DNA of 64,000 nt from an uncultured Chloroflexia bacterium (GTDB lineage Bacteria > Chloroflexota > Limnocylindria > Limnocylindrales > CSP1-4), in assembly GCA_963766735.1 (NCBI GenBank), contig CAVYBU010000006.1, forward strand, positions 1-64,000, in the 5' to 3' direction. The position numbers were made by a program, and so were the translations under genes. How positions within the stretch are numbered: position 1 is the stretch's first letter; each line of letters opens with the position of its first letter. The notes under the pieces were generated by a model. The model did no database searches, was not told the DNA's origin, and was given only the letters and a program-made list of their open reading frames with translations. Below are positions 1 through 15,321 of this stretch, one piece after another.

Positions 1-540
1 GGCAGTGGCCAAAGATACTTCATCTAATGCTTCCAAAGTGTATAAGACAAAGACCGGTAAAACGGATCATAATACGGAGACCCACCCATTCGGACAGAGC
101 CTTAGCACTATCAAGATTAGCACAGAAGGCTTCGAACACAATTATCTGGAAATATATGAGGACAGGGATCCCATTTCTGGTGTATTAATAGCCGACCTGG
201 ATAGTAACGGTTTTGATGAAATTTACATAATTACAACTTCAGCTGGCACTGGTAGTTATGGAACAGTATTTGGGCTTGCTTCAAATAAAGACAAAAGCCT
301 GTCAATGATTAATTTCCCTGAAATACAAGAAGGAGACAGGAATTTCGAAGGATATATGGGACACGATACTTTCAGAATAGAGGATCGAACGCTTGTTAGA
401 ATTTTTCCCATATATAAAAAGGGCGACATCAATCAAAATCCGACCGGCAGGAAACGCAAATTGATTTATGGTTTATATCCAGGAGAGTAGCGATGTGGCA
501 ACTAAATTTAGAGAAGTCAGAAACACTGAACAGCCCATAA
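1..540 (+). CDS. PliI-like (lysozyme-inhibitor-like) protein, 5'-partial, probable frameshift near 487
   Basis: ADLDSNGFDEIYI..SAGTGSYG motif resembles PliI-family SAGSGSY. An alternative frame continues (MWQLNLEKSETLNSP) to TAA at 540. Confidence 0.5.
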
Positions 541-608
541 GCTGGGAATAGAATGAGAATATGCCAGTCAATATAAATAATGTTTTTGGAATTGAATCCG
601 AAAACTCT

Positions 609-787
609 GTATCTGACAAACTAACAATTTGACGTCTGAATTTTTGAAGATAATGTAAACATCTATGCGAAATGAACCGAGTCTCAAAATGTGTGATATC
701 AGATTACGATATATGCATTTTTGCCAGAGTTGGGATTACATCTACATATCTGTAATTCGGGAGAATTTGTGATATTTTATGACATCA
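609..787 (+). repeat. Composite intergenic repeat, copy A
   Basis: GTATCTGACAAA...GATAATGTAAACATCTATG (TGTAAAC 654-660)...TTTTGCCAGAGTTGGGATTACATCTAC...TTGTGATATTTTATGACATCA. Confidence 0.9.
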
Positions 788-837
788 CACATGAATGAAT
801 CTGACCAAATGAATTATGCATTTAAAGGAACGTTTTC

Positions 838-2049
838 ATGAGGAAAAAATGCAAGACGTATATTGTATTAGTGATGTTTTTTTTTGGAACCGTTGGGCAG
901 ATCAAGGCAGAGGAAAACATCATGATAAAAAACATAGCTCGGGATAACACCTTGTTTGCTCTGGATCTTTACAACCAGTTGAAAATGACTGACGGCAACC
1001 TATTTTTCTCGCCGTTTAGTATTTTTACTGCGCTTGCCATGACCTGGGCTGGAGCCCGCGAAAACACTGCCGTTCAGATGGCCGAAACGCTGCATTTCAC
1101 CGAGAAACCCGCTCAGTTTCATCGCGCTATAGGAGATCTGATTTCACAACTTAATGCCGTTCAAAAAGAAACCGATGTTGAACTCAGCATTGCCAATGCG
1201 ATCTGGGCTCAGAAAGGCTACCAATTTCTGGATGAATTTTTCCGGATAGTTCAGCAATCTTATCAGGCTGATCTGAAGCAGGTTGATTTTTCAAGCGCCG
1301 CTGAATCAGCTCGTCAGGCAATCAATGCCTGGGTGGAGCAGCAAACCAATGAGAAGATCAAAGATTTATTGCCGCCCAAAGTGCTCAATGCGCTCACCCG
1401 TCTGGTTTTGGTGAACGCGATTTATTTCAAAGGATTCTGGGACAATCAGTTTAAATCCCGTGACACACGGGAAATGGAGTTTTGGCTGTTGACCGAGGTC
1501 GCCGTTAAGGTGCCGATGATGCACCAGGAACATCAATTCGGATACTGGGAAAATGACTGGTTGCAGATAATTGAGATGCCGTATAAAGAAGAGTCTCTGT
1601 CTTTAATCGTTTTACTTCCCAAAGAAAAGACCGGAATTACTGATTTGGAGCAAAAACTGAATTTTGAAAATATGATGGCCTGGCAAAGCCGGTTGCGAAA
1701 ACGAAAGGTTATTGTTTTCTTTCCAAAATTCAAGATCGAATCGCAATTTAGTTTAGGTCAGACCCTTGCCTTGATGGGCATGCCGGATGCCTTTGATCCC
1801 GAACTGGCTGATTTTTCAGCCATGGTGGGTCAGAAAGAACTGTATATTTCGGCGGTGATTCACAAAGCCTTTTTGGAAGTCAATGAGGAAGGCAGCGAAG
1901 CGGCGGCGGCCACCGGTGTGGTGGTTAGCGTGACCTCCATTGCGCCATCGCCACCGATATTCAAAGCCGACCATCCGTTTGTTTTCTTTATTCGGGACAA
2001 TAAGTCACAAAGCATTTTATTTCTCGGACGGGTGCTAAATCCGGCTTAA
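838..2049 (+). CDS. Serpin (serine protease inhibitor), secreted
   Basis: NLFFSPFSI, LVLVNAIYFKG, hinge EEGSEAAAAT, FKADHPFVFFI; N-terminal signal peptide. Confidence 0.95.
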   Translation: MRKKCKTYIVLVMFFFGTVGQIKAEENIMIKNIARDNTLFALDLYNQLKMTDGNLFFSPFSIFTALAMTWAGARENTAVQMAETLHFTEKPAQFHRAIGDLISQLNAVQKETDVELSIANAIWAQKGYQFLDEFFRIVQQSYQADLKQVDFSSAAESARQAINAWVEQQTNEKIKDLLPPKVLNALTRLVLVNAIYFKGFWDNQFKSRDTREMEFWLLTEVAVKVPMMHQEHQFGYWENDWLQIIEMPYKEESLSLIVLLPKEKTGITDLEQKLNFENMMAWQSRLRKRKVIVFFPKFKIESQFSLGQTLALMGMPDAFDPELADFSAMVGQKELYISAVIHKAFLEVNEEGSEAAAATGVVVSVTSIAPSPPIFKADHPFVFFIRDNKSQSILFLGRVLNPA

Positions 2050-2060
2050 TCGTTAGAGTA

Positions 2061-2182
2061 CAACGTTATCTCAGGGGCGGGAGGGTGAGTTGTGATTCCA
2101 TCTACATATCTGGAATTTAATGATTTTACATGTATTCTCAATCACCAGCCTAGTGATATTTGGTTTTTGCCATACGATATCA
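2061..2182 (+). repeat. Composite repeat, copy B (central module missing)
   Basis: CAACGTTATCTCA...GAGTTGTGATTCCATCTACATATCTG...CATGTATTCTCAA...GATATCA; shares flanking modules with copies C, D and E. Confidence 0.7.
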
Positions 2183-2208
2183 AGACCTGGCGGAATCCAC
2201 GTTAATGA

Positions 2209-2238
2209 TTGACAAAATCCCATCGATTTGGGTATAAA
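2209..2238 (+). promoter_or_regulatory. Sigma70-type promoter
   Basis: TTGACA-18 bp-TATAAA upstream of the cyclase gene. Confidence 0.55.
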
Positions 2239-2400
2239 TAAATGAATTTATACTATTTCTAATTTTCCTATTCCATCTGATCTGAAATAGTACTCAATTA
2301 GCGCAATAGAATCTGACTTCTCATCCGACTTTTGTGCTCTTCCAAATAATCCACATACTGAGTCCCTTTGTTTGAAACCTTGAGACAAGGGGGTGACACT

Positions 2401-4317
2401 ATGGCAGAAAAGGGTTTTAAACGTAAACTCACAGCTATCCTTAGCGCTGATGTTGTTGAATACAGCCGCATGATGCGAGATGATGAGGATGCCACCATCC
2501 GCACGCTGACAAATTATCGTTCTGCCATGTCAAATCTCATCCAAAAATTCCGTGGTCATGTAGTGGACACCATAGGCGATAATCTGTTGGCTGAATTTAC
2601 CAGTGTAGTGGATGCCGTAAATTGTGCAGTTGAGATTCAACGAGAGCTTGCCGAACGAAATGCCGAGTTTTCTGAGGAGCGGAAAATGAAGTTTCGAATC
2701 GGTGTCAATCTTGGTGATGTTGTTGAGGAAGAAGGTCGAATTTACGGAGATGGAGTGAATATCGCCGCTCGGATGGAGAGCTTGGCTGTGGCTGGAGGCA
2801 TTTGCATATCCGGAAGCGTGTATGACAGTGTGGAAAGCAGATTGGGATTGGAATATGAATTTTTGGGCGAACAGGAAGTCAAAAACATCGACAGGCCCGT
2901 CAGGACTTACAGGGTCCTGTCTTTTCCCGGTGCTGCAGCCCACCGGGTAGTTCAGGCCCGGGAGGTAGTTGGGAAAAAGTGGCGTATGTCGGCAATAACG
3001 GCTGGGGCTGTTTTAGTGCTGGTGGCTGCCGGGGCAATCATATGGAACAGTTACCTTCGACCTGTCTCTGTGGAAAAGGCTTCCATTGAAAAAATGGCCT
3101 ATCCCCTGCCCGATAAACCCTCGATCGCCGTGCTGCCATTTGTCAACATGAGTGGTGATCCTGAACAGGAATATTTTAGTGATGGTTTCACCGAAGATCT
3201 CATTACGACACTCTCAAAGATACCGGATCTGTTCATAATCTCCCGTCAATCAACCTTCACCTATAAAGGTAAACCGGTTAAGGTGAACAAGGTCGCCGAA
3301 GACCTTGGTGTCCGCTACGTATTGGAGGGCAGCATCCAGAAATCCGATGATAAAGTGAGAGTAACCGCCCAGCTTATTGACGCCGTCAAAGGCAATCATC
3401 TATGGAGTGAGCGTTACGATCGAGAACTAAAAGACCTTTTTGAGCTCAAAGAAGGCATCATTTTGAAAGTTGCAAATGAGTTATTGGTTGGGCTAGTAAC
3501 CGGAGAGTTTCTACGCCAAATAGTTGGTTATACGGACGATCCTGAGCCTTGGCAGACAAACAATCTTGAGGCATGGGAGACTTATTGGGTTGCACAAAAG
3601 TACGCAAGACGCTTCAGAAAAGAAGACAATGCACGAGCCCGCGATCTTTACACAAAGGCTTACCAACTCGATCCCAACTGGTATATCCCATTAGTGGCTA
3701 TAGGCTATACCCATAGGAATGACGCACGGCATGGTTGGAGCGAGTCGCGTAAAAAATCGTTTGATCTGGCCACTGAGATGGCCAATAAAGTGCTCGCCAT
3801 TAATGATGAATCCGCCTCAGCCTACGGTCTTCTCGGTGCGATCCACCTGATGAAAAGAGAATATGAAAAAGCGAATTACTATAATGAAAAAGCACTGAGC
3901 CTCGCTCCTAACTACTCCGAAGCTCATGCGGGAAGAGGATTTTTGCTAAACTATTTAGGAAAGCCTCAAGAAGCGATCATGCATTTCAAAATAGCCATGC
4001 GGCTCAGCCCTTTTTACCCCCCGTGGTACCTCTATCATCTGGGGTTATCATATCATCTGACCGGGCAATACGAGCAAGCAATCGAAACCCTAAAAAAAGG
4101 GATTGAGCGAACACCGGATGTTATATTTCCACACGTTAGACTGGCTGCAGTATACAGCGACCTTGGTCGCGAGCAAGAGGCTCGCGCTGAGGCGGAAGAA
4201 GTTCTCAGGATAAAGCCAGACTTCTCAGTAGAGAACTATGCAAGAGCCAACCCCTTTAAAGACACTGCCATTGTGGAATACAGAAAGGAGTTGCTGCACA
4301 ACGCCGGGCTTAAATGA
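2401..4317 (+). CDS. Class III adenylate/guanylate cyclase with TM, TolB-like and TPR domains
   Basis: RKLTAILSADVVEYS, FRIGVNLGDV, GDGVNIAARME, PSIAVLPFVNMSGDPEQEYFSDG, C-terminal TPRs. Confidence 0.93.
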   Translation: MAEKGFKRKLTAILSADVVEYSRMMRDDEDATIRTLTNYRSAMSNLIQKFRGHVVDTIGDNLLAEFTSVVDAVNCAVEIQRELAERNAEFSEERKMKFRIGVNLGDVVEEEGRIYGDGVNIAARMESLAVAGGICISGSVYDSVESRLGLEYEFLGEQEVKNIDRPVRTYRVLSFPGAAAHRVVQAREVVGKKWRMSAITAGAVLVLVAAGAIIWNSYLRPVSVEKASIEKMAYPLPDKPSIAVLPFVNMSGDPEQEYFSDGFTEDLITTLSKIPDLFIISRQSTFTYKGKPVKVNKVAEDLGVRYVLEGSIQKSDDKVRVTAQLIDAVKGNHLWSERYDRELKDLFELKEGIILKVANELLVGLVTGEFLRQIVGYTDDPEPWQTNNLEAWETYWVAQKYARRFRKEDNARARDLYTKAYQLDPNWYIPLVAIGYTHRNDARHGWSESRKKSFDLATEMANKVLAINDESASAYGLLGAIHLMKREYEKANYYNEKALSLAPNYSEAHAGRGFLLNYLGKPQEAIMHFKIAMRLSPFYPPWYLYHLGLSYHLTGQYEQAIETLKKGIERTPDVIFPHVRLAAVYSDLGREQEARAEAEEVLRIKPDFSVENYARANPFKDTAIVEYRKELLHNAGLK

Positions 4318-4420
4318 ATTGGCTTGTTTTTTCTAAGCATCGCAATCCTATTAAGAAACAAGTGCAGATTGCTTCTTCAATAACCAACTATCTTGGGTCT
4401 TCAATTTTTACGGATTTCTC

Positions 4421-4541
4421 CAACGTATCTGACAAATTTTGGACCTCTAAAAATGTCAGATAATGTAAACATCTATGAAAATTTGACCTGTATTTAGAAT
4501 TTGTGGTATCAGATGCATTTTTACCAAAGTTGGGGTTACAT
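4421..4541 (+). repeat. Composite repeat, copy C (ends just before the YR/IS91 element's flanking hairpin)
   Basis: TATCTGACAAATTTT..AAAAATGTCAGATA hairpin, ATGTAAACATCTATG...AGTTGGGGTTACAT. Confidence 0.9.
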
Positions 4542-4550
4542 AGAATAGCG

Positions 4551-4654
4551 TTTTATCAATCGTTGCGCTGACGCAAATAAGGCAACAATACCGGTGGCAT
4601 TTTAGTTTCAGATAAATGTGTAGATGAGTTAAGCCTCAGCAATGATTGATAAAA
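4551..4654. repeat. Long imperfect hairpin flanking the element's left end
   Basis: TTTTATCAATCGTTGCGCTGA ... TCAGCAATGATTGATAAAA; the loop contains GTAGATG (inverted CATCTAC). Confidence 0.75.
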
Positions 4655-4947
4655 TGGTGAACTGTACCGCGGCTGGGCGGCAGGATTCGACGAGTGTAGT
4701 CTATGGGGATTATATGGATGGCATCAAGTCAATAGTTTTCATCGAGGGCACTGATTTGAGCAGGGTGAATTTAATAAAATGAAAAATTTGACCTATCTGC
4801 GCCCCATTTGTTGTTTGAAAATTATGATAAGTCTGCAAAATCATATTTGTATACACATCGATGGCAGAAAGCGTGCGCAGCTGTACTGTCGTGCTTTAAC
4901 AGCAACTTTTTAATCTTAGAAAATAAGCATCAAGACAGATATAGTGG

Positions 4948-6155
4948 CTATGATGAATTCAAATCATTTTTTGGCAATTTTCTGATTGGTATCATTTTAC
5001 CCTTCTTGCATTTCGGACAGCAGCTAATGTCTATGCCGGTCAATCGGAGCATCATTTCGCTGATGCTCTCTTTAATTTTCTCCGGCAATGTTGCATCCGG
5101 ATCGATTAATTTTCTAATAAGCGGGATATCTTTTTTTTTGTTTGTGTGAGCTAAAAAGCCAAAGTATCGGATTTTGAAAAAGCCCTTTGGCAGGACATGA
5201 AGCAAAAATCGGCCGATGAACTTATCAGCATCAAGGGTCATTTCTTTGATTTCATTGTCTTTTTGACGATCCCGGTAGGTAAAAGTGACGCTGCCGTTAT
5301 CAATGGAGATGATCCGATTGTTAGATATGGCAACCCGGTGAGTGTAGCGGCCAAGATACTCAAGTACCTGCTGGGGACCTGCAAAAGGGCGCTTTGCATA
5401 GGCGATCCATCTTTTTTTTGAAACCGAGTTAATCAGCTGTTGGAATGCTTGCCTGGAGTTAAGGGCAGCAGTTTTTTGGGTAAAAATCAACTCGTCTTTT
5501 AAATAGGCGTTCAACAGCAGTTTGAGATAGCGTTTTCTAAACTCCTTAGCCAGAGAAGTGATTTTAAACAGAAAGTTATCTTTGGTCGGTATCCATTTGT
5601 CTTTGGTGAAGGAAAGAGCCCCTGCGGGAATCAGGCAGTGCAGATGGAAATGGTCGATAAGCGTCTGTGACCAAGTATGCAAAACGCTGATGAATCCGAG
5701 CCGGCCTTCAAGTCTCCACTGAGGATCTTTGGCAAAGGCTTGAAGGGTTTGATTGACAGCGGCAAACAAGATGTTCAGGGTCGTTCTTTTGTTGGATAAT
5801 ATAATGGGATTAAGGTCATGTGGCAGGGTGAATACCAGGTGGAAGTAACCGCAGGGGAGCAGTTCTGCTTTGCGGTCATTAAGCCATTGTTCCTTTGTCA
5901 TCGTTTGACATTTAGGGCAATGTCGATCCCGACATGAATTATAAGCATTTTGCTCAAATGCACATTGGTCGCATTGCTCAACATGACCGCCAAGCACAGC
6001 GGTTCGGCATATTTCAATATGGTGCATGACTTTTAACTGTTCATAGGACGCGCGTGTGATCGCCGGTAATCATCTGCGTAAAGGCGGAAAATATCGGCCA
6101 GTTCCACTTGTTCTTTGTTTTTGGGGGCCAGGGAATCATTGTGTGTTTTTTTCAT
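4948..6155 (-). CDS. IS91-family transposase (zinc-binding + Y2_Tnp), frameshift near 6050
   Basis: CRTAVLGGH..C..C..YNSCRDRHCPKCQ, HLVFTLP, HTW..HFHLH (HUH), YLGRY (YxxxY), IRYFG; the N-terminus ELADIFR lies in another frame. Confidence 0.92.
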
Positions 6156-6167
6156 TATTGCACCTCC

Positions 6168-7022
6168 TTACTCATCATCTTCATAAAGGGTATCCAGCGG
6201 GCTTTTGCACTGTTGGACCCGCTCGGGTATGAGGTGGAGGTAAATAATGGTGGATTTTAAAGAGGAGTGGCCCAAAAAACGCTTAAGGGTGTAAAGATCC
6301 ATTCCTTGGTAAAGTGAATGAGTAGCGAAGGTGTGCCTCAGACAATGGATACCGAGGCCCTTGGTTAGACCGGCTTTTTTTTTGCGAGGTAAAAAGCGGT
6401 TTGTGCCGCGCCTTCACACAGGTGGGTTTGAGGCTTTTGTCCGGCAAACAACCATTTGCCGGGACGATATTTACTCCAATAAGTTCTCAGATCCGTAAGC
6501 AGCCTTTTGGGAAAGAATTGTGTAACGATCCTTTTTGCCTTTGCCCTGATCGACGCGAATCATCATGCGGTCAGCATCACTTTCGATGTGCTTGGGCTTA
6601 AGGCGAACCAGTTCACTGACCCGCAGCCCTGAGCCATAAACGGTTTGCAACAACAGCCGGTGTTTAAGATTTTCAGCTGCAGCAAGCAATCGTTTTACTT
6701 CCGGTTGGCTAAAAACAACCGGCAGTTTTTTAACACGGGGCCGGGGCGGGATTTGAAACTCGGCATCGTCCCATTTACAAATATGCCTGTAAAAGCAGAC
6801 AATACCGGACAAATAAGAATTACAGGTGCCCCAGGACAATTTGCGTTCTTCAAGCAAATGGCGGATATAGTCCTGGATCTGGTCGTTGGTCAAGGTGTCG
6901 GGCGATTGCATGTAATATTTGGACAATAGCTTAACACCAGTTACGTAGCTTCTCTTTGTGTGATCGGAAAATCGTTGCAAGGTCATGTAGTTGAGAAATT
7001 GGGTTTTCAGTTCACTGGCCAT
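6168..7022 (-). CDS. Tyrosine recombinase (N-terminal SAM-like domain), frameshifts near 6505 and 6385
   Basis: GLRVSE, KGKKDR, then in shifted frames HCLRHTFATH, LGH, STIIY; full R-K-H-R-H-Y set present. Confidence 0.9.
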
Positions 7023-7178
7023 AATAATACCTCCTTGGTAAAAAGTTAATATAATAGGACGCTTTACCTGGAGATACTATAAAACAATATAGCTTGGATT
7101 AGGAGGTTAAAGTTGATCTGTCGATAAAATGAATTCGGTGGGTAAACATTCTCCGCGAAGCGGTTCAGTTCATCTTAC

Positions 7179-7208
7179 TAATCACAGGTTTGCTTATTTC
7201 TGTGATTA
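7179..7208. repeat. Hairpin flanking the element's right end
   Basis: TAATCACAG-12 nt-CTGTGATTA immediately after CAGTTCATCTTAC. Confidence 0.7.
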
Positions 7209-7247
7209 CATAATAATATCCAAAATTTTGATCAGTGTATCAGCTTG

Positions 7248-7344
7248 TGTAAACATAGTCAGTTCACTCATGATTTAAAAAGATCAATTGTTGAGCCTCT
7301 GCTCAGCGAAACGACCGCTCCAGCAGAGTTGTGCTGACGTTACA
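7248..7344 (+). repeat. Divergent repeat-like hairpin
   Basis: TGTAAACATAGTCAG...AGAGTTGTGCTGACGTTACA; same TGTAAACAT/GTTACA ends, different interior. Confidence 0.5.
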
Positions 7345-7443
7345 ATATTTCCTCCGGCCCGCGCTATACTTTGGGAAAATAGTATTGATCGGGATCTGAC
7401 TGAGTTTGTTTCATATCAATGCATAAATCGACAGAGGTGAATA

Positions 7444-8100
7444 ATGGAAAACCCGATTCAGAATTACCGGCAGATAAGGTTGGCACGTGTAAAAGAGTCA
7501 TTGGAGGGGAACAATTTCGAGGCATTTATCGCAGAAAATGTAGAAGAGGCAAAACAAATCATGAAGGAGGAGATTCTGCCCAAATTAAGAGATATAAAAA
7601 TCGTTTCTAGAGGAGATTCCTTGACATTTGAAGCTACAGGTATGCTGGAGGTAATTGAAAAAAACACGGCCTTTGACTTCTTGGATCCCTTTGAAAAGGG
7701 TCTCCCTGATGAAGAAATATACGAACGGGGTAGGCAGGCACTTCTGACGGATCTATTTTTTACAGGAACAAATGCTCTGACAGAGACGGGTATCCTTGTC
7801 AACCTCGATGGGTGGGGAAATCGGGTTGCGGGTCTTACCTATGGACCCAAATACGTGATCGTTACGGTTGGCCGGAATAAGATAGTCCCTGATTTGGATA
7901 GTGCAATGTATCGGATTAAAGATTATGCAGCTCCGGTCAATGCCATGCGGTTCAACACGAAGACACCCTGTGTAAAGACATCCTTTTGTGAGGATTGCAA
8001 GAGCCAAGATCGCATCTGCAGCACCTGGACCATCACGGAAAAATCTTTTCCAAAAGGCAGGATAAAGGTGATTTTAATCAACGAAGAATTAGGATTTTGA
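7444..8100 (+). CDS. LUD-domain (LutC/YkgG-like) protein
   Basis: GTNALTETGILVNLDGWGNRVA, GRNKIV, TPCVKTSFCEDCKS. Confidence 0.88.
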   Translation: MENPIQNYRQIRLARVKESLEGNNFEAFIAENVEEAKQIMKEEILPKLRDIKIVSRGDSLTFEATGMLEVIEKNTAFDFLDPFEKGLPDEEIYERGRQALLTDLFFTGTNALTETGILVNLDGWGNRVAGLTYGPKYVIVTVGRNKIVPDLDSAMYRIKDYAAPVNAMRFNTKTPCVKTSFCEDCKSQDRICSTWTITEKSFPKGRIKVILINEELGF

Positions 8101-8158
8101 ATATTTATTTATTGGGTGCCTCAACAGCCAATTCTCATTTATTATGGATATGTTATGC

Positions 8159-8452
8159 ATATCTGCAAAAGGTTCTGTCTTAAAAAATTACAGATATTGT
8201 AAACATCTATGTAGAATTGACCGACCTATAAAACTTGTGATATCAGATTACGGATAGCCATTTTTGCCAGAGTTGCTGTATCATCTACGTGTCTTTACTT
8301 TTACACTTTTCCATGTATTCTCAACATCTATGCAAATTTGACCGACCTTCACAAATTGTGATATTAGATTACGGTATATGCGTTTTTGCAAGAGTTGGGG
8401 TTACATCTACTACCTGCAAGTTTCAGGTAAGTTGTGATATATTATGATATCA
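8159..8452 (+). repeat. Composite repeat, tandem copies D1 (core 8198-8289) and D2 (core 8323-8410)
   Basis: Two AACATCTATG...AGAGTTG..CATCTAC units joined by a ...CATGTATTCTCAA module, ending TGATATATTATGATATCA. Confidence 0.9.
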
Positions 8453-8577
8453 ATAGTTTTATAGAAAATTAGAATTTCAAAAATATTGTACCAAATAGAA
8501 TCTATGATATTGAATAGTATAGATTCCACCTAATACATGTTAGCTGAACATCAACACAATAAAGGAGATCCAAGTTC

Positions 8578-10005
8578 ATGAAAACCACACTGTCGAAAAT
8601 TCTTCTGAGCACGATGCTTGTGTTCGCGTCCCTTCCTTCTATTTCCGCCCACGCGGACATTGACCTCACTTCAGCGGAAATTGAGGCCATCGCCGAGGAA
8701 GGCTTCATCTACGGTCTACCGATCGTGATGAACTATGGGGTGATGAACGAATACGCGATCAACCGCGATTCCGGCCAGTTCAAGGCCCCGTTCAACCACA
8801 TCAAGAACGAGGCACGCGTCTTCACCTACAAGGACACCGCGATCATCACACCGAACAGCGACACACCTTACTCGCTGCTGTGGCTCGACCTGCGGGCGGA
8901 GCCAATCGTCCTGTCCGTTCCCGCGGTGGACAAGAACCGTTACTACTCGGTGATGCTCGAGGACGGCAACACCTTCATTTACGGCTACATCGGGAGCCGC
9001 GCCACCGGTTCCGAAGCGGGCGACTATATGGTCGTCGGCCCGGGTTGGAAGGGCGAGGTCCCGGACGGGATCAAGAAGGTTTTCCACTCCTCCACCCAGT
9101 TCTCGCTGGTTGCCTACCGCACCCAGCTGTTCAATCCTGAAGACATGCCAAACGTGGTAAAAATTCAGTCCGGTTACGGAGTGAAACCGCTCTCCGAGTT
9201 CCTCGGCCAGCCGGCTCCCAGCCCCGCGCCGAAGATCGATTTCCCGAAGTTCGACAAGGAAATGGTGAAAACGAAGTTCTTCGATTACCTGGAGTTCTCG
9301 CTCCAGTTCGCGCCTGCCGGTCCGGAGGAAAAAGAAATTCGCGCGAAGCTCGCCAAGATCGGAGTTGGCCCGGACAAGACCTTCGACTTGGACGATCTCT
9401 CTCCAGAGCAAAAGAAAGCAGTGGCAGCAGGCATGAAGGCCGGTGAAGCCAAAATCGCAGAATACCTCAAGACGCAGCTGATCGAACTGAATGGCTGGGG
9501 CATCAGCAGCTATTTTGGGGATCGCGCGTTCTATAACGGCGATTGGCTGAAACGTGCCGCAGGCGCGCAAGCTGGAATCTATGGTAACGAGTCCATCGAA
9601 GCCGCCTATCCGATCGCCAAAACACTGGCTGACGGCTCGCCACTCGATGGAAGCAAGAGCAACTACACGATCACCTTCCCGGCCGATGGATTTCCGCCGG
9701 TGAACGCCTTCTGGTCGGTGACCATGTACGACGGCAAGACCCAGTTGCTGATCAAGAACCCGATCAACCGCTACCTGATCAATTCGCCGATGCTGCCGGA
9801 CATGAAGAAGAACGCCGATGGATCACTGACTCTTTACATCCAGAAGGACAGTCCCGGAGCCGAAAAAGAGAGCAACTGGCTCCCGGCCCCCGACGGCCCG
9901 ATCTACCTCGCGATGCGCCTCTACTGGCCGCGCACGGAGTCGCCAACGATCCTGCCGATCGGCAAGGGCGACTGGAAGCCACCGGTCATCGTGGAGGTTA
10001 AGTGA
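8578..10005 (+). CDS. DUF1254/DUF1214 secreted protein
   Basis: FIYGLPIV, TPNSDTPYS, FWSVTMYD, NWLPAP, MRLYWP; signal peptide. Confidence 0.92.
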   Translation: MKTTLSKILLSTMLVFASLPSISAHADIDLTSAEIEAIAEEGFIYGLPIVMNYGVMNEYAINRDSGQFKAPFNHIKNEARVFTYKDTAIITPNSDTPYSLLWLDLRAEPIVLSVPAVDKNRYYSVMLEDGNTFIYGYIGSRATGSEAGDYMVVGPGWKGEVPDGIKKVFHSSTQFSLVAYRTQLFNPEDMPNVVKIQSGYGVKPLSEFLGQPAPSPAPKIDFPKFDKEMVKTKFFDYLEFSLQFAPAGPEEKEIRAKLAKIGVGPDKTFDLDDLSPEQKKAVAAGMKAGEAKIAEYLKTQLIELNGWGISSYFGDRAFYNGDWLKRAAGAQAGIYGNESIEAAYPIAKTLADGSPLDGSKSNYTITFPADGFPPVNAFWSVTMYDGKTQLLIKNPINRYLINSPMLPDMKKNADGSLTLYIQKDSPGAEKESNWLPAPDGPIYLAMRLYWPRTESPTILPIGKGDWKPPVIVEVK

Positions 10006-10007
10006 CC

Positions 10008-10137
10008 AGCTAACAATGGGCTCCAAGGGACCGGCGGGCAGCGCGGTTTTTCGAGGTTCAGCCTTGCTGCCAAATTTGTAAGTCAATCAAAGCTCAGTGC
10101 TGCAAATCTCCGCCGGCCTCTGGGCTCAAGGTTACAT
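10008..10137 (+). other. attC site (130 bp)
   Basis: R'' AGCTAAC just after the stop codon; arms GGGCTCCAAGGGACCGGCGG / CCGCCGGCCTCTGGGCTC; R' G|TTACAT. Confidence 0.85.
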
Positions 10138-10148
10138 ATGTCTGCGTT

Positions 10149-10310
10149 GTATCTGTAAAAAATGGAAGCCCCAAAAGTGCATATACTGTAAACATCTATG
10201 TAGAATTGACCGACCTTTAAAAAATGTGATATCTGTATTTTTGCCGGGGTTGGGGTACCATCTACGTATATGTAGTTTGGCGATTTTGCATGTATTCAAT
10301 ATACATGCAA
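10149..10310 (+). repeat. Composite repeat, copy E
   Basis: GTATCTGTAAAA...ACTGTAAACATCTATG (10187)...GGTTGGGGTACCATCTAC...CATGTATTCAA. Confidence 0.88.
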
Positions 10311-10441
10311 TTTTGATGAATGTGATTTTATTTATTATATCGCAAGTTTGGAGAAAGTAGTGGTTTCATCTTTATCAGGGTATTAGGTTGATAAATAAAA
10401 ATCGATATAACAACTAATGCTAAACCTAAGGATATGAAATT

Positions 10442-10825
10442 ATGGAGCCTAAAGCCAATGACAAGAGAGTATCATCTTCTTCACCAAACCTGCCTCAGAA
10501 AGTGCGCAAAATTTTAATTGTTTACCTTATATCTGCTGTTATTGTTTTGGTTATCTGTTTCATTTTTGGATGGCGATCAATAGAAAATATTGGAACCGGA
10601 TTTATATATGGTTCCTTGAGTCTGGCACTTTTCGGCGCATTGCTCTTGGCAGGGAATACGGTTCCTGCTCAACTTTCTAAACTTTCACTCCCCTCTGTTA
10701 GACGCCATCAAGAAAACGAAAGCGATGGTTCTCCGTCTAAGGATGAAGGAAAAAGATTCTTTTTTACGACTTTAATATGTGGAGCATTTTTATTTGTGAC
10801 AGGACTTATTTTAAAATTATTGTGA
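10442..10825 (+). CDS. Small membrane protein (3 TM), unknown function
   Basis: 127-aa ORF with hydrophobic segments and an AAGGA RBS. Confidence 0.7.
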   Translation: MEPKANDKRVSSSSPNLPQKVRKILIVYLISAVIVLVICFIFGWRSIENIGTGFIYGSLSLALFGALLLAGNTVPAQLSKLSLPSVRRHQENESDGSPSKDEGKRFFFTTLICGAFLFVTGLILKLL

Positions 10826-10894
10826 TATTTGGCATATCTGTAAAATGGCCCAACTGCATCAATATATCACAACTTGAGTTAAAGGGGCTGAGAG

Positions 10895-11944
10895 ATGAAA
10901 ATAGTGAAAAGGATTCTTCAAGGTTTGGGCATCTTCATTGGAATAATTGTCCTTTATCTATCAATCGTGACCTTTTTCCCTGGCTTCAAGGTTCTGGAAC
11001 AACCTCTTGAACAACGTAAGCAATTAAAAAGTGATGTAGACTCAGAACTATCTTCAAAAAGAAAAAATGTGAGTTTTAAAGTCAAAGGGACGTCGATAAG
11101 TGCATGGTTGTATCTTCCAGATAATTTATCTGTTCCAGTTCCTTGTATCATTATGGGTCATGGATTTGGGGGTACGAAAGATATGGGTTTGGAATCTTAT
11201 GCTATTCGTTTTCTGGAAGCTGGCTTTGCGGTGCTCATTTTTGATTACCGACACTTTGGCGAAAGCGAGGGAGAACCTCGGCAGTTGATATGGATTCCTT
11301 ACCAGCTGGAAGATTGGTCATCGGCGATCACTTATGCACGAGGGCTTAAGCAGATTGATCCATCAAAAATTGCTCTCTGGGGGACCTCTTTGAGTGGTGG
11401 CCACGTGATTGCAACTGCTGCAAAAGACAATCAGATTGCTTGTGTAGTCGCACAATGTCCTGGACTGGATGGTCGGGCATCCGGAGAGATGTTTTTTGAT
11501 AGAGTAGGAATCGGATATCTGCTTCGTATGGCAATGCACGGACAACGTGACTACTTGAGGTCGTGGTTTGGACTTTCGCCTCATAAAATACCAATTGTCG
11601 GAAAACAAGGAAGTATTGCTTGTTTGACTACTCCAGATGCTTACGACCATTTCAGAAAATTTGCACCAGCCAATTATATTAACGAAGTCTGTGCTCGTAT
11701 CTTTATTCGGGGAGACAAATACAGGCCGGTCAAACAGGCCCAGAATGTGCGTTGCCCAGTTCTGCTTCAGATATGCGAAAATGACAGTATAATTCCCAAA
11801 AGTGCAGCAGAAGAAACTGAAAGGCAATTAGGGAAATACGCAGAAGCGATATACTATCCAATCGGCCACTTTGATATCTATATAGGGGCTAACTTCGAAA
11901 AGGCTGTAAAGGATCAGCTTTTGTTTTTTAAGAAGCACCTGTAA
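10895..11944 (+). CDS. Alpha/beta hydrolase
   Basis: HGFGG, FDYRHFGESEGEPRQ, nucleophile elbow GTSLSG, GHFDIY. Confidence 0.92.
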   Translation: MKIVKRILQGLGIFIGIIVLYLSIVTFFPGFKVLEQPLEQRKQLKSDVDSELSSKRKNVSFKVKGTSISAWLYLPDNLSVPVPCIIMGHGFGGTKDMGLESYAIRFLEAGFAVLIFDYRHFGESEGEPRQLIWIPYQLEDWSSAITYARGLKQIDPSKIALWGTSLSGGHVIATAAKDNQIACVVAQCPGLDGRASGEMFFDRVGIGYLLRMAMHGQRDYLRSWFGLSPHKIPIVGKQGSIACLTTPDAYDHFRKFAPANYINEVCARIFIRGDKYRPVKQAQNVRCPVLLQICENDSIIPKSAAEETERQLGKYAEAIYYPIGHFDIYIGANFEKAVKDQLLFFKKHL

Positions 11945-11960
11945 TATCTCCAACAAAAAA

Positions 11961-12083
11961 CAACTATCTGGCATCACTTAAAACTGCATATACTGTAAAC
12001 ATCTATGCAGAATTGATAGGGCTTTAAAACTTGTGAAACCAAATTACGATATTTGCAATTTCACAAGATTTGGGAGTACAGCT
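11961..12083 (+). repeat. Composite repeat, copy F (degenerate)
   Basis: CAACTATCTG...ACTGTAAACATCTATGCAGAATTGA (11994)...TTACGATAT...AGATTTGGGAGTACA. Confidence 0.8.
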
Positions 12084-12120
12084 GAAACAATGTTGATATG
12101 AATATCAGAGGTTCGATGAG

Positions 12121-12651
12121 ATGAAGTCTAAAATAGCAGAAACTCTGATAGCTTCACTTGGAACACTATTTTTCCTATTTTTGATAATTCCTTTCTTTTT
12201 GATCTGGATACCCCATAGAATCCTTTTATCGCCTGAATATATTTACCGTTTTGACATCGGTATATATCGGTATTTTGGGCTGTCTCCGATAGTACTCGGT
12301 GTTGTAATATACATTTTTTGTTCTGGTAGTTTCGTATTTGTTGGCAAAGGTACACCGATACCTTTTACGCCAACTAAAGAGTTAATAGTGACTGGATTAT
12401 ACAGATTTGTTAGAAATCCATTGTACATTGCTGGAGTTCTTGTTTTGGCAGGAGAAGCAATTCTATTTCAATCTTTAGGCATATTTCTTTATTGCTTGGT
12501 AATGTTTGGGGTTTTCAATGTCCATGTCATCATGGAGGAAACTTTATTAGCAGAAAAATTTGGTGCGAGATACGAACAATATTGCAAGTCTGTTCCTCGT
12601 TGGATTCCAAGATTAAAACCCTATAGTAAAAAAGATACAGAGTCCAAATAA
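12121..12651 (+). CDS. Isoprenylcysteine carboxyl methyltransferase/PEMT family membrane protein
   Basis: GKGTPIP, LIVTGLYRFVRNPLY, EETLLAEKFG..YEQY...VPRWIP. Confidence 0.9.
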   Translation: MKSKIAETLIASLGTLFFLFLIIPFFLIWIPHRILLSPEYIYRFDIGIYRYFGLSPIVLGVVIYIFCSGSFVFVGKGTPIPFTPTKELIVTGLYRFVRNPLYIAGVLVLAGEAILFQSLGIFLYCLVMFGVFNVHVIMEETLLAEKFGARYEQYCKSVPRWIPRLKPYSKKDTESK

Positions 12652-12712
12652 ACAAATCTGCGAAGTTTCCAACTTTTTTCAGGTGAGCCTAAATTGCAGA
12701 TATCCTGCTATG

Positions 12713-12886
12713 GTATCGGAAAAAAATTGCCCGCCCAAAAGTACTGATACTGTAAACATCTATGCAAAATTGACCGGTCTTTAGAATCTGTGATATCAGA
12801 TTACGATATATGCATTTTTGCAAGAGTTGGGGTTACATCTTACGTATCCAAAGTTTGAGGAAATTTGTGATATTTTATGGTATCAA
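12713..12886 (+). repeat. Composite repeat, copy G (near consensus)
   Basis: GATACTGTAAACATCTATGCAAAA (12751)...TTTTGCAAGAGTTGGGGTTACATCT...TGATATTTTATGGTATCA. Confidence 0.9.
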
Positions 12887-13029
12887 AGGTTTTGAAAGGC
12901 GTGATCCTCGTTATATTTTCTCAAACGAAGGTTGATTTAAACTGAGACAATGGTTTGTTATTTTCAATCCTGATGAGGTAAAGATAACCTTTTGATAAAA
13001 AGACCCTGTAATTTTGAAAGGAGGTTGAA

Positions 13030-13209
13030 ATGGCTACTATAATCGTTGAGAGTAAATGGCCTGCTGCAAGTTCCGAAAAGCTTGCTAAGACATGGTTGGA
13101 AATGGGTGATGTAGCAGAATCGCAGAAAATGATTTGGGCCGGCACTTTAGATGATATTAATTTAGTAAGGATACGCTCACGGGCAAGTGAAAATTGCGTT
13201 TATGGGTGA
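13030..13209 (+). pseudogene. Short ORF probably interrupted by the IS4-type element
   Basis: Strong RBS GGAGG and ATG at 13030 (MATIIVESKWP...); coding character is lost near 13150. Confidence 0.4.
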
Positions 13210-13297
13210 ACTTTTTACCGAATAAAAAGCCTCCTTGTGGTAAGAATTACAAGCGCCAACTAATAATTCTACACCAAAAGCAAGGAGGCTAGAGACG

Positions 13298-13810
13298 ATG
13301 ATACACCAAATTGGCAGGAAATTGCGACAGCAAATTCATTATTTTTCGGGTGAACTTTGTAAGGTATGGGAACCGTGGCTTCCCGCTTTGTTGAGGAGGC
13401 CGTTTTTGGCATATCTGCCAGCGGATCTGTTCGGTTGACTGAAATCGGTCGGGCTTTAGAGGAAAAAATTCCGCTTCATGCGACCCACAAGCGTTTGAGT
13501 CGTAATTTGGCAGATCAAAGCCTTGAAGATAACCTGGGGAGCAACGTTCTCAAGTTGGGCTCAAAACGTATAAACGAAAATACGCTACTGATCGTTGACC
13601 CATCTGATGTTAAAAAAAAATACGCCAAGAAAATGCAATATCTAGCCGATGTGCGTGATGGCAGCGAGGATACAATCGGAAAGGGATACTGGTTATGCGA
13701 AATCGTTGGCTGTGAAGTCGGATCAAATGAGATTACACCGCTGGCACAAGAACTATGGTCGCAGGATGCGCCTGATTTTAAGAGCGATAACGATCAAATC
13801 CTTTACCTTG
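13298..13810 (+). mobile_element. IS4-type DDE transposase, N-terminal fragment truncated at the junction
   Basis: SVRLTEIGRAL, KRLSRNL, LIVDPSDVKKKYAKKMQYL..VRDGS..GYW; frameshift near 13365. Confidence 0.8.
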
Positions 13811-15321
13811 GCCGGGCCGGTGCAGCAGGTACCCCTGGCCCGCGTCAAAGCCCATCTCGATGACGGCCAGGAGCTGGTCGGGTGTCTCGATGCCCTCGGC
13901 GACGGTCGTCTGGCTGCGTCGCTGGGCAAGCTCGCGAAGCGCGCGCAGCACGGCCTGGGAAGACTCATCCCGGACCCCGGCCTGGACCAGCGAGAGGTCG
14001 ATCTTCATGATGTCGAACTCGAGCTCCCGCAACAGCCGGAGGCCGGCGTTGCCGGCGCCCACGTCGTCGGCCGCGATCCGCATGCCGTGCCCCCGAAGCA
14101 GCGTGATGGCCTGGCGGAGCCGGTCGAGATCCTCGACGGCCTCGCGCTCGGTCAGCTCCAGGACGATCCGGGCGGGGTCGAACCCGCGTTGGCGGACGAG
14201 CGCGAGGAACTCCTGGGGCTGGAAGGCATCTGCCTCGAGAGACCGCGGCGAGAGGTTGACCGACAGGTAGAGGTTCGCGCCCATCGTCCGCGCTCCGGTC
14301 AGGACGGTGTCGAGGCTGGCCAGGTCAAGCTCCACGGTGTGATCCGTCGACTCGGCCGCGATGAACAGGGCGCTCGCATTGGCGAACCCGGCGTCCGCAT
14401 TCGGGCGAACCAGGCCCTCGTAGCCCAGGACGCGTCCCGTCCGCAGGCAATGGATCGGCTGGTACACGGGCGTGAGGAGGCGGTCTGCCGAGACGCGGGC
14501 CACGGCGGCTGCCAGCTCCGGCAGAGACCGTCCGTCATCCACGATTCCGTGCCGGGTCGGGTCGAAGAGCTGGACGTCGGTGCGGCCGTGGCGCTTCCCC
14601 CAGTAGAGCGCGGCACCCGCCTGGTGGACCAGCTGCTTGAGATCCCTGGCCAGCTCGGGCATGGCCGAGACACCGATGGTCAGCGAGAACGGGGCGACGC
14701 CAAGCGTCCCGGAGCCACCGCTCAGTGCGCTCGCCAGGATCCGTCGCGCGGTGCCGACGGCCTCATCCGGCCCCCCGTCCGGCAGCACGATCGCGAAGTC
14801 GTCACCGCCGATCCGGAACCCACGTTCCGATCCGCGGAGGGTGCCCAGGATGATCCGGGCCGTGGCCCGGAGGATGTCGTCGCCAGCGGCCTGACCCTGG
14901 GCCTCGTTGATCTGCTTCAGGTCGTCCACGTCCAGGTACAGGAGCGCGATCGAGCCTGACTCGGCACGGGCCGATGTCACCTGGCGACCGAGCTCCTCCT
15001 GGAAGGCCCGGTGGTTGCCAAGGCCGGTCAGCCCGTCGCTCAGCGCATCCAGGCGGGCACGATCGTAGGCGTCCTTGAGCCCATCCTGCTCGTTGTCGAG
15101 ACTCGCCACCTGGCCCAGGATCCGCCGCAGGGCCAGCCCGGACAGGACGCTGAACGCGATCACGATGGACAGCCAGAGGAGCGAGCGCCCAGCGGAGCTC
15201 GGGGTTCAGTCTGCCACGCGATCAGCAGGGTCGCAGCGACCCACAGCGCGGCGCATGCAACGAACCAGCGCACCAGGCTCGTGCGAATCGTCCGCGCCAT
15301 CGGGGTCGCGGGAGTCTTCAT
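13810..15321 (-). CDS. Membrane GGDEF/EAL protein, 3' end truncated at the junction, frameshift near 15160
   Basis: DGLTGLGNHRAF, GGDDF, YEGLVR, LELTE, DDVGAG, KID, AEGIET, QGYL. Confidence 0.9.

Follow-up and report, generated by a model that had tools for sequence, protein, structure and literature searches.

How does an integron gene cassette, complete with its own attC site, come to lie alone among intergenic repeats? The question is raised by a DUF1254 gene in the stretch of DNA analyzed here (the window), which covers the initial 64 kb of contig C6 in an assembly of 3.6 Mb and 70% GC. The original prediction took this gene for a canonical integron cassette set into a non-canonical array at an attI-like or secondary site, where it would have arrived either through an integron integrase (IntI) acting in trans or through a cassette-capturing system of the array's own. 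Single attC sites lacking an integron integrase have been termed SALINs and are reported to be common, with 3400 found in 2469 of 21,105 genomes (bioRxiv 10.1101/2022.09.11.507474). The same source describes attG sites, which recombine in double-stranded form and share the consensus GWT, and states that inserted cassettes are expressed if they lie near a promoter (bioRxiv 10.1101/2022.09.11.507474).

Results

The cassette lies in low-GC DNA that is probably foreign to the assembly

From position 1 to ~13,800, the GC content of the window is 35–49% (~42% overall), while in the remainder it is 64–75%; the sole kilobase of the low-GC part that reaches 58% is 9001–10000, and this is the cassette's own. 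The switch from ~40% to ~70% GC is abrupt, falling within 13800–13820 (at about 13,805–13,815), and cuts a transposase-like ORF (13366–13863). We take this point to be a probable chimeric join of the contig. The low-GC stretch is unique across all 35 contigs of the assembly and is located at a contig end. A profile of the ~290-nt repeat that surrounds the cassette gave eight matches in the 3.6-Mb assembly, all of them inside C6:645–12,924, and the repeat is also present in metagenome-assembled genomes titled Desulfobacterales, Deltaproteobacteria, and Gammaproteobacteria. Furthermore, the IS91 transposase of the low-GC segment is 88% identical to one in a Desulfobacterales chromosome (G003). 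Given its unique GC content, its position at the contig end, the confinement of the repeat to it and its Desulfobacterales relatives, we read the segment as foreign: bases 1–13,800 are probably DNA of another organism, most likely joined chimerically to the 70% GC genome. The true host of the cassette is most likely a Desulfobacterales-like bacterium, and not the 70% GC genome under which the contig is filed.

We found no IntI above the TIGR02249 cut-off in the 13.8 kb, which start at the contig end, in line with the earlier statement that the window contains no intI. The whole assembly, in which the original prediction would have had the source genome's intI sought, likewise held none over the cut-off, the best match, which is the local Xer-like recombinase described below, reaching 96.8 + 57.3 bits against the 265 required. 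Since the low-GC 13.8 kb probably do not belong to the 70% GC genome, the absence of intI from that assembly says little about the host of the cassette. Among the public runs, none contained at least half of the sequence words of 7400–10400.

A single-gene cassette with homologous boundaries in other contexts

The cassette occupies 8540–10131 on the plus strand (1592 bp), from TTAGCT up to and including the last G of its attC, with boundaries that were read in the sequence and from homology with two other loci, L051 and L052. Its GC content of 56.8%, compared with 42.8 and 38.9% in the flanks, bears out its description as GC-richer. At the left junction (8539–8545, plus strand; crossover between 8539 and 8540), the target's G is followed by TTAGCT, the cassette half of the R′ core site, and the resulting GTTAGCT is the exact reverse complement (7/7) of AGCTAAC at 10008–10014. 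Every position and motif on which the original prediction relied was present in the sequence, namely the G at 8539, TTAGCT at 8540–8545, AGCTAAC, the 130-nt attC, and the terminal G↓TTACAT (the arrow marks the crossover).

The sole gene of the cassette (8578–10005, plus strand) is preceded by a ribosome binding site and encodes a 475-aa protein with an N-terminal signal-like segment, in which Pfam recognizes DUF1254 (143 bits) and DUF1214 (124 bits). The protein has more than 8000 homologues, the nearest of which is 95% identical, and its solved relatives are all uncharacterized Vibrio proteins, with 3u07 as the best match (E 3e-46). The product is a predicted secreted DUF1254/DUF1214 protein, encoded by an apparently promoterless gene.

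We fetched 80 homologue loci and dropped 16 in which the match touched the locus edge or was longer than the gene, which left 64 with readable flanks. A cassette boundary (GTTAGCT upstream and AGCTAAC directly after the stop codon) was found in two of the 64, L051 and L052, and these are also the only loci among those examined with more than 80% identity to the cassette (90 and 94.6% at the nucleotide level, respectively, and 92–93% at the amino acid level). Homology among the three starts at G↓TTAGCTG and stops at AGCTAAC, with unrelated DNA to its left in all three contexts, and the upstream flank of L052 is itself attC-like and ends in G. The recurrence of the same motifs next to unrelated flanks identifies GTTAGCT and AGCTAAC as true cassette boundaries, as had been proposed.

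The attC site belongs to a chromosomal-integron family

The attC is 130 nt long (10008–10137, plus strand), with its R″ box (AGCTAAC) at 10008–10014, its R′ box (GTTACAT) at 10131–10137, and the crossover between 10131 and 10132; AGCTAAC begins three bases past the stop codon of the 8578–10005 ORF. Its arms form an imperfect inverted repeat with a score of 12, a value that none of 2000 random arm pairs of the cassette reached (maximum 4). In the minimum-energy fold, the R box and L stems are paired and the extra bases form a 2-nt bulge on the R″-L″ arm. The folding energy was another matter: the bottom strand in its array form gave a z of -0.09, and the circular form folded at -22.7 kcal/mol, compared with -17.0 ± 3.2 kcal/mol for shuffles, 18 of 300 of which folded equally well. 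We therefore set folding energy aside as a test for attC, since GC-rich shuffles fold as well and the measure does not discriminate. The expectation that the site would fold as an attC was thus borne out by the pairing of its arms and not by its energy.

Among 401 genomes from the order to which G003 belongs, three contained homologues of the attC (two sites in G245, and others in G085 and G063), at 75–82% identity. AAC and GTT keep their register in these copies, whose outer flanks are unrelated. The consensus stem of seven sites has 14 pairs, 11 of which show compensatory changes on both sides. We built a covariance model from five sites of other genomes, leaving the window sequence out; this model, which is specific to the family and is not the general model of IntegronFinder, matched the window attC over its full length (105.9 bits, E 4e-24) and gave no other significant match on either strand of the 64 kb (next E 8.7). 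Applied to G063, it found 24 sites, including dispersed copies. Ten of these lie on the plus strand at 3,972,791–4,008,556, several of them ~467 nt apart, 5′ of a divergently oriented intI on the minus strand (3,966,820–3,967,764) that scores 428 bits (cut-off 265). This bona fide intI and the ten same-strand sites have the layout of a classical integron, and the origin of the window attC can be followed to a chromosomal-integron family of the same order. Three attC-family sites also occur in a row in G245:C212.

In the low-GC 13.8 kb, neither the family model nor a heuristic scan for AAC...GTT hairpins found a second attC. The heuristic scan placed the window attC first on both strands, with shuffles reaching -17.3 kcal/mol; it overlooked the short attC-like sites of L052 and is thus not a general detector. 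An Rfam scan of 1–14000 (E <= 1) returned no family. The homologue boundaries, the compensated stem pairs, the covariance model, and the array beside an intI all agree with the earlier identification of a canonical cassette whose attC is a member of an integron family, and we conclude that 8540–10131 is a bona fide integron gene cassette with one gene and its own attC.

The presumed array is a dispersed intergenic repeat

The sequence repeated around the cassette is ~290 nt long, and an alignment of 36 distinct full-length copies, drawn from five sources, spans this length. In the 7-Mb chromosome of G003 the repeat is dispersed over both strands (106 candidates, 40 of which were scored and all 40 matched), and it also occurs there and in the window in local runs, in which one strand carries single genes and repeats in alternation. 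One run in G003 parts an ABC-transporter permease from its ATPase, after which a PEMT-family gene follows. What had been described as a non-canonical array is thus a dispersed intergenic repeat that lies on both strands of G003 and even inside an ABC-transporter operon. We considered the repeat as an attC and rejected it, since its conservation extends over ~290 nt, past any AAC/GTT pair, and its consensus fold is weak on both strands (~-11 kcal/mol); it behaves as an oriented intergenic repeat and not as an attC. A PEMT gene with a repeat behind it is found in the window too.

Upstream of the cassette lie the repeat copies R3a (8126–8320) and R3b (8322–8461), which together span 8126–8461 on the plus strand. 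R3b contains a sigma-70-like motif at 8338–8365 (TTGACC-16-GATATT, with TG upstream), ~175 nt upstream of the target. On the other side lies R4 (10127–10344, plus strand; nhmmer score 158.8, profile positions 45–277), the conserved part of which begins at the right junction of the cassette (profile position 45) and in which a terminator-like hairpin is found at 10286–10310. The repeat consensus at the start of R4 is AATTACAG, not GGTTACAT. Joining the two flanks in silico gave a repeat match of 158.4, compared with 158.8, and no extension, and so gave no support for the left flank as a missing left arm of R4. Other repeat copies (L045, L138, L048, and L043) showed no convincing cassette at the corresponding place.

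A further copy, R2, is split at profile position ~192 (4374–4541 and 7171–7240) by a two-gene IS91-family element on the minus strand (~4542–7170), whose insertion point, between 4541 and 4542, is just past GTTACAT. The element encodes a Y2 transposase of the IS91 family (4948–6027, minus strand; NF033538, 416.9 bits, cut-off 125) and, directly upstream of it, an Xer-like tyrosine recombinase (6168–7022, minus strand) that is spread over three frames by two frameshifts. This is the local recombinase of the original prediction. It scores far under the cut-offs of both Xer and IntI models and, where the IntI profile has its specific insert, falls ~41 aa short of that profile, so that the reported lack of this insert stands. 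A recombinase gene was directly upstream in all five IS91 transposase hits with at least 37% identity (in G003 and G002), among 14 hits in five genomes. The literature, searched for IS91 elements that carry an integrase gene, yielded nothing useful, and the apparent association of recombinase and transposase comes from the genome comparison made here alone. The further suggestion that this system can capture integron cassettes was not upheld, as the recombinase, Xer-like and frameshifted, is the companion of an IS91 transposase and the repeat is dispersed and intergenic.

The cassette sits alone at a simple G↓TT site

Both junctions of the cassette show a GTT-type G↓TT crossover. The flank to the left contains a 51-nt imperfect palindrome (8487–8537; 25-nt arms, 72% complementary), which belongs to the target and is not an attC; the inverted repeat that had been noted before the junction, GAATCTAT/ATAGATTC, is part of it. 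The triplet AAC is absent from 8411–8539, including the 128 nt that precede the junction (the closest upstream AAC is at 8323), so no canonical attC can end at 8539. When the flanks were compared with seven attI-side regions of integrons from the order Desulfobacterales, they shared words of at most 10 nt (best E 0.31), and the resemblance to the attI1 simple site, judged by eye against the motif as originally written, comes to ~8/15 ungapped identities, which is weak in AT-rich DNA. With no intI nearby and no similarity to the seven attI-side regions, the description of the site as attI-like was not borne out. The components of a complete integron (an intI with the additional domain and an adjacent attI) are lacking in the 13.8 kb around the cassette, and the arrangement is instead of the SALIN/attG type, with a single attC, no integrase, and a G↓TT (GWT) crossover at a place without attC or attI structure. 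The insert is also flanked by a 5-bp direct repeat, TACAT, at 8534–8538 and 10133–10137, which integrase-mediated insertion does not predict.

A 206-nt contig from a run of another study (X2) spans the right junction from 9964 to 10167 with 14 differences (93% identity), so that the right junction is real and not recent. The left junction was covered by none of the contigs listed for the public runs X1, X2, X3, and X5. The contigs of these runs, which are short unitigs from relatives, did not contain the empty site either, and the uninterrupted target that the original prediction had hoped to see in relatives was not found in the five repeat-bearing genomes (G003, G004, G259, G002, and G014), where the match to the left flank (8411–8539) is limited to its first 50 nt, the tail of the repeat. 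Since neither the five genomes nor the public-run contigs hold an empty site, insertion is an event that we infer and have not seen. A joint from 8251 to 10229 was considered as an excision product and rejected; it is instead a jump between two repeat copies.

Discussion

The lone cassette is likely a SALIN, set into a secondary G↓TT site of the attG type by an integrase that acted in trans. This was one of the routes put forward at the outset, and with neither an attC nor an attI at the site it is the best reading of the locus. The cassette would have come from a lineage with G063-type integrons, and its circular form would have offered the attC as a folded bottom strand. An IntI encoded elsewhere in the true host would then have recombined this attC with a double-stranded G↓TT, originally ...CATG↓TTACAT..., leaving G↓TTAGCT on the left and, on the right, the G of the attC with TTACAT behind it. 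Two ~290-nt repeat copies enclose the target, and the promoter-like motif in R3b may drive the gene. We thus infer the action of an integrase in trans, a single crossover at G↓TT, and an upstream repeat from which the gene is expressed. That the true host encodes an integrase is plausible, since an IntI over the cut-off was found in two of the four repeat-bearing genomes checked.

The 51-nt imperfect palindrome that abuts the left junction allows for a different history, in which an attI, or the attC of a preceding cassette, received the insertion and is now degenerate, the palindrome and its flank being what is left of a decayed integron or CALIN. TTGTACC at 8486–8492 agrees by eye with the expected R″ (the complement of GTTACAT) at 5/7 positions, and G063 does contain dispersed attC-family copies. 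However, AAC is absent from 8411–8539, the spacers of such a site would be 5 nt vs. 11 nt, no intI fragment occurs in the 13.8 kb (the sole tyrosine recombinase there is Xer-like and tied to IS91), the seven attI-side regions show no similarity, and the flanks are made up of a host-type repeat and ordinary genes; we therefore judge this history unlikely. The TACAT direct repeat would in turn suit transposition with a 5-bp target duplication, and homologous recombination of a larger fragment could likewise have brought in the G↓TT junctions as an inheritance. Routes of this kind strike us as very unlikely, since 8540–10131 holds a single ORF with neither a transposase nor terminal inverted repeats, both junctions fall exactly at the canonical crossover and coincide with the shift in GC, and a 5-nt match is weak in AT-rich DNA with some freedom of offset. 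They would predict a single TACAT at the empty site, whereas insertion by an integrase predicts CATGTTACAT.

A third history would make the repeats and their genes a separate cassette system, whose own tyrosine recombinase took up the cassette at a GTTACAT core. GTTACAT is indeed found in the right-hand core of the repeat, both the window and G003 have repeats alternating with single genes along one strand, and the IS91-family element likewise lies right after GTTACAT (between 4541 and 4542). We nevertheless disfavor this view as extremely unlikely: the recombinase is twice frameshifted, is ~41 aa short at the IntI-specific insert, and sits upstream of the IS91 transposase in 5/5 of the hits with at least 37% identity (14 in all), while the repeat, with 106 candidates on both strands of a 7-Mb chromosome, splits an ABC-transporter operon, has a weak consensus fold (~-11 kcal/mol), and at ~290 nt reaches well beyond any AAC...GTT pair. 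That the contig is probably chimeric at ~13.8 kb also brings up misassembly as a means of splicing the cassette into low-GC sequence. An artefact of this sort is scarcely credible, as the contig from an independent run spans the right junction at 93% identity and both junctions have the exact reciprocal core-site structure of recombination.

The reading we prefer, with an integrase at work in trans on a G↓TT site, can be set beside several known systems. Sedentary chromosomal integrons have family-type attC sites, the Vibrio VCR arrays being the classic example, and the locus resembles them in that its 130-nt attC is a member of a sequence family whose central part is conserved and which forms an array beside intI in G063. 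In contrast to such integrons, the window copy is outside any array, its background carries a different repeat family, and its gene is GC-richer than either context. The insertion of resistance cassettes at secondary sites in plasmids by IntI1 was described in the literature of the 1990s; here, too, a single cassette lies outside an integron, at a simple site of the G-T-T type, but there is no resistance gene and no class 1 context. An attC without an integrase is also the mark of CALINs, which need at least two attC sites, whereas the family model and the heuristic scan found one in the 13.8 kb of the true host that are at hand; an intI or more attC sites may lie just past position 1, where the contig ends. 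With the SALIN/attG insertions treated in the preprint, the locus shares the combination of one ORF and one attC with no nearby intI or attI, a G↓TT that fits GWT in a target without attC or attI features, and the position of the cassette downstream of a promoter-like element (bioRxiv 10.1101/2022.09.11.507474). It differs from what the preprint describes in being a natural case in uncultured Desulfobacterales-like DNA, known from sequence alone, and in having its site at the edge of a host intergenic repeat (bioRxiv 10.1101/2022.09.11.507474).

A lone cassette outside an integron is a known and ordinary route of cassette spread, of which this is a new example in the form of a probable SALIN. 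Here a natural integron cassette is found outside an integron, with both junctions intact, in an environmental genome that resembles those of sulfate reducers, and the case supports the view that cassettes are spread by integrases to ordinary G-T-T sites across genomes, a view that has so far come mostly from E. coli experiments and RefSeq surveys. For users of the assembly, the locus also carries a caution, in that the initial 13.8 kb of the contig are probably from another organism and the apparent cassette array is a dispersed intergenic repeat.

The Desulfobacterales repeat, with its promoter-like and terminator-like parts, might even be a preferred landing pad for mobile DNA, its GTTACA-type motifs having been used twice in the 13.8 kb. 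At the left edge of R4, IntI would have put the cassette into G↓TTACAT, and the IS91-family element with its recombinase would have entered right after GGTTACAT in R2. We hold this idea to be rather improbable; if it were true, the repeat would be a dispersed, attI-like expression platform through which cassettes could exit the integron and be expressed chromosome-wide.

Finally, the three homologous cassettes (that of the window, L051, and L052) share the gene and R″, and their attC bodies, of ~50, 66, and 130 nt, are unrelated. Ordinary cassette movement provides no explanation for this difference, which may reflect exchange at R″.

Origin of the low-GC segment

The GC content of the window shifts abruptly, the first ~13.8 kb (1–13,815) having ~42% GC and the sequence beyond it 70%. 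No second low-GC stretch of this kind occurs within the 3.6-Mb assembly. A transposase-like ORF (13366–13863) is interrupted at the switch and Desulfobacterales-type repeats are present in the low-GC ~13.8 kb; the contig in this MAG is probably chimeric at the point where low-GC and high-GC sequence meet. We found that a PEMT-family methyltransferase gene is followed by a repeat copy both in the window (12121–12651) and in G003, a 7-Mb Desulfobacterales chromosome (L171:11251–11817), and that adenylate-cyclase/TPR genes adjoin the repeat in both sequences. Because these two gene-repeat neighbourhoods are common to the window and G003, the low-GC segment appears to be ordinary chromosomal DNA from a relative of G003.

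The repeat itself is an oriented intergenic family with a unit of ~290 nt. Its copies in the low-GC part lie at 645–789, 2087–2183, 8126–8320, 8322–8461, 10127–10344, 11940–12080 and 12655–12924, together with R2, a copy in two pieces (4374–4541 and 7171–7240). More than 100 candidate copies were detected on the 7-Mb Desulfobacterales chromosome, and the family occurs in local gene-repeat-gene runs, one of them within an ABC-transporter operon. Its summed contig depth was very high in marine-sediment runs, reaching a maximum of 2837 (one bin, public sequencing run X5). The repeat contains a promoter-like motif (TTGACC-N16-GATATT), and some of its copies also have a terminator-like hairpin; an Rfam scan of window 1–14000 returned no match to the repeat. 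R2 is split by a two-gene IS91-family element (4542–7170, minus strand), inserted directly after GGTTACAT, in which a Xer-like tyrosine recombinase gene with two frameshifts is followed by a Y2 transposase gene. This gene pair is also found in G003 and in a further comparison genome, G002.

attC sites of the cassette and its relatives

The window cassette and its two nearest homologs, at loci L051 and L052, carry genes that are 90–95% identical, and share the left boundary and R'' (AGCTAAC), the core site after the stop codon. Homology ends where R'' ends, and the attC bodies of the three cassettes (window, 10008–10137; L051, 1960–~2010; L052, 2911–~2980) are mutually unrelated, differences that may stem from attC replacement through exchange at R''. 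Sites of the same family as the window attC were found in a complete chromosomal integron of a Desulfobacterales-order genome (G063:C1:3,966,820–4,008,556; locus L173 covers its initial 7.5 kb), where a minus-strand intI (428 bits) is followed by at least 10 plus-strand attC sites, five of which, at 4,006,548–4,008,556, are spaced by ~467 nt. Two further intI genes in G063 scored over the cut-off.

The 5-nt word TACAT flanks the window cassette as a direct repeat (8534–8538 and 10133–10137); since integrase-mediated insertion creates no target duplication, this reflects either chance or another route.
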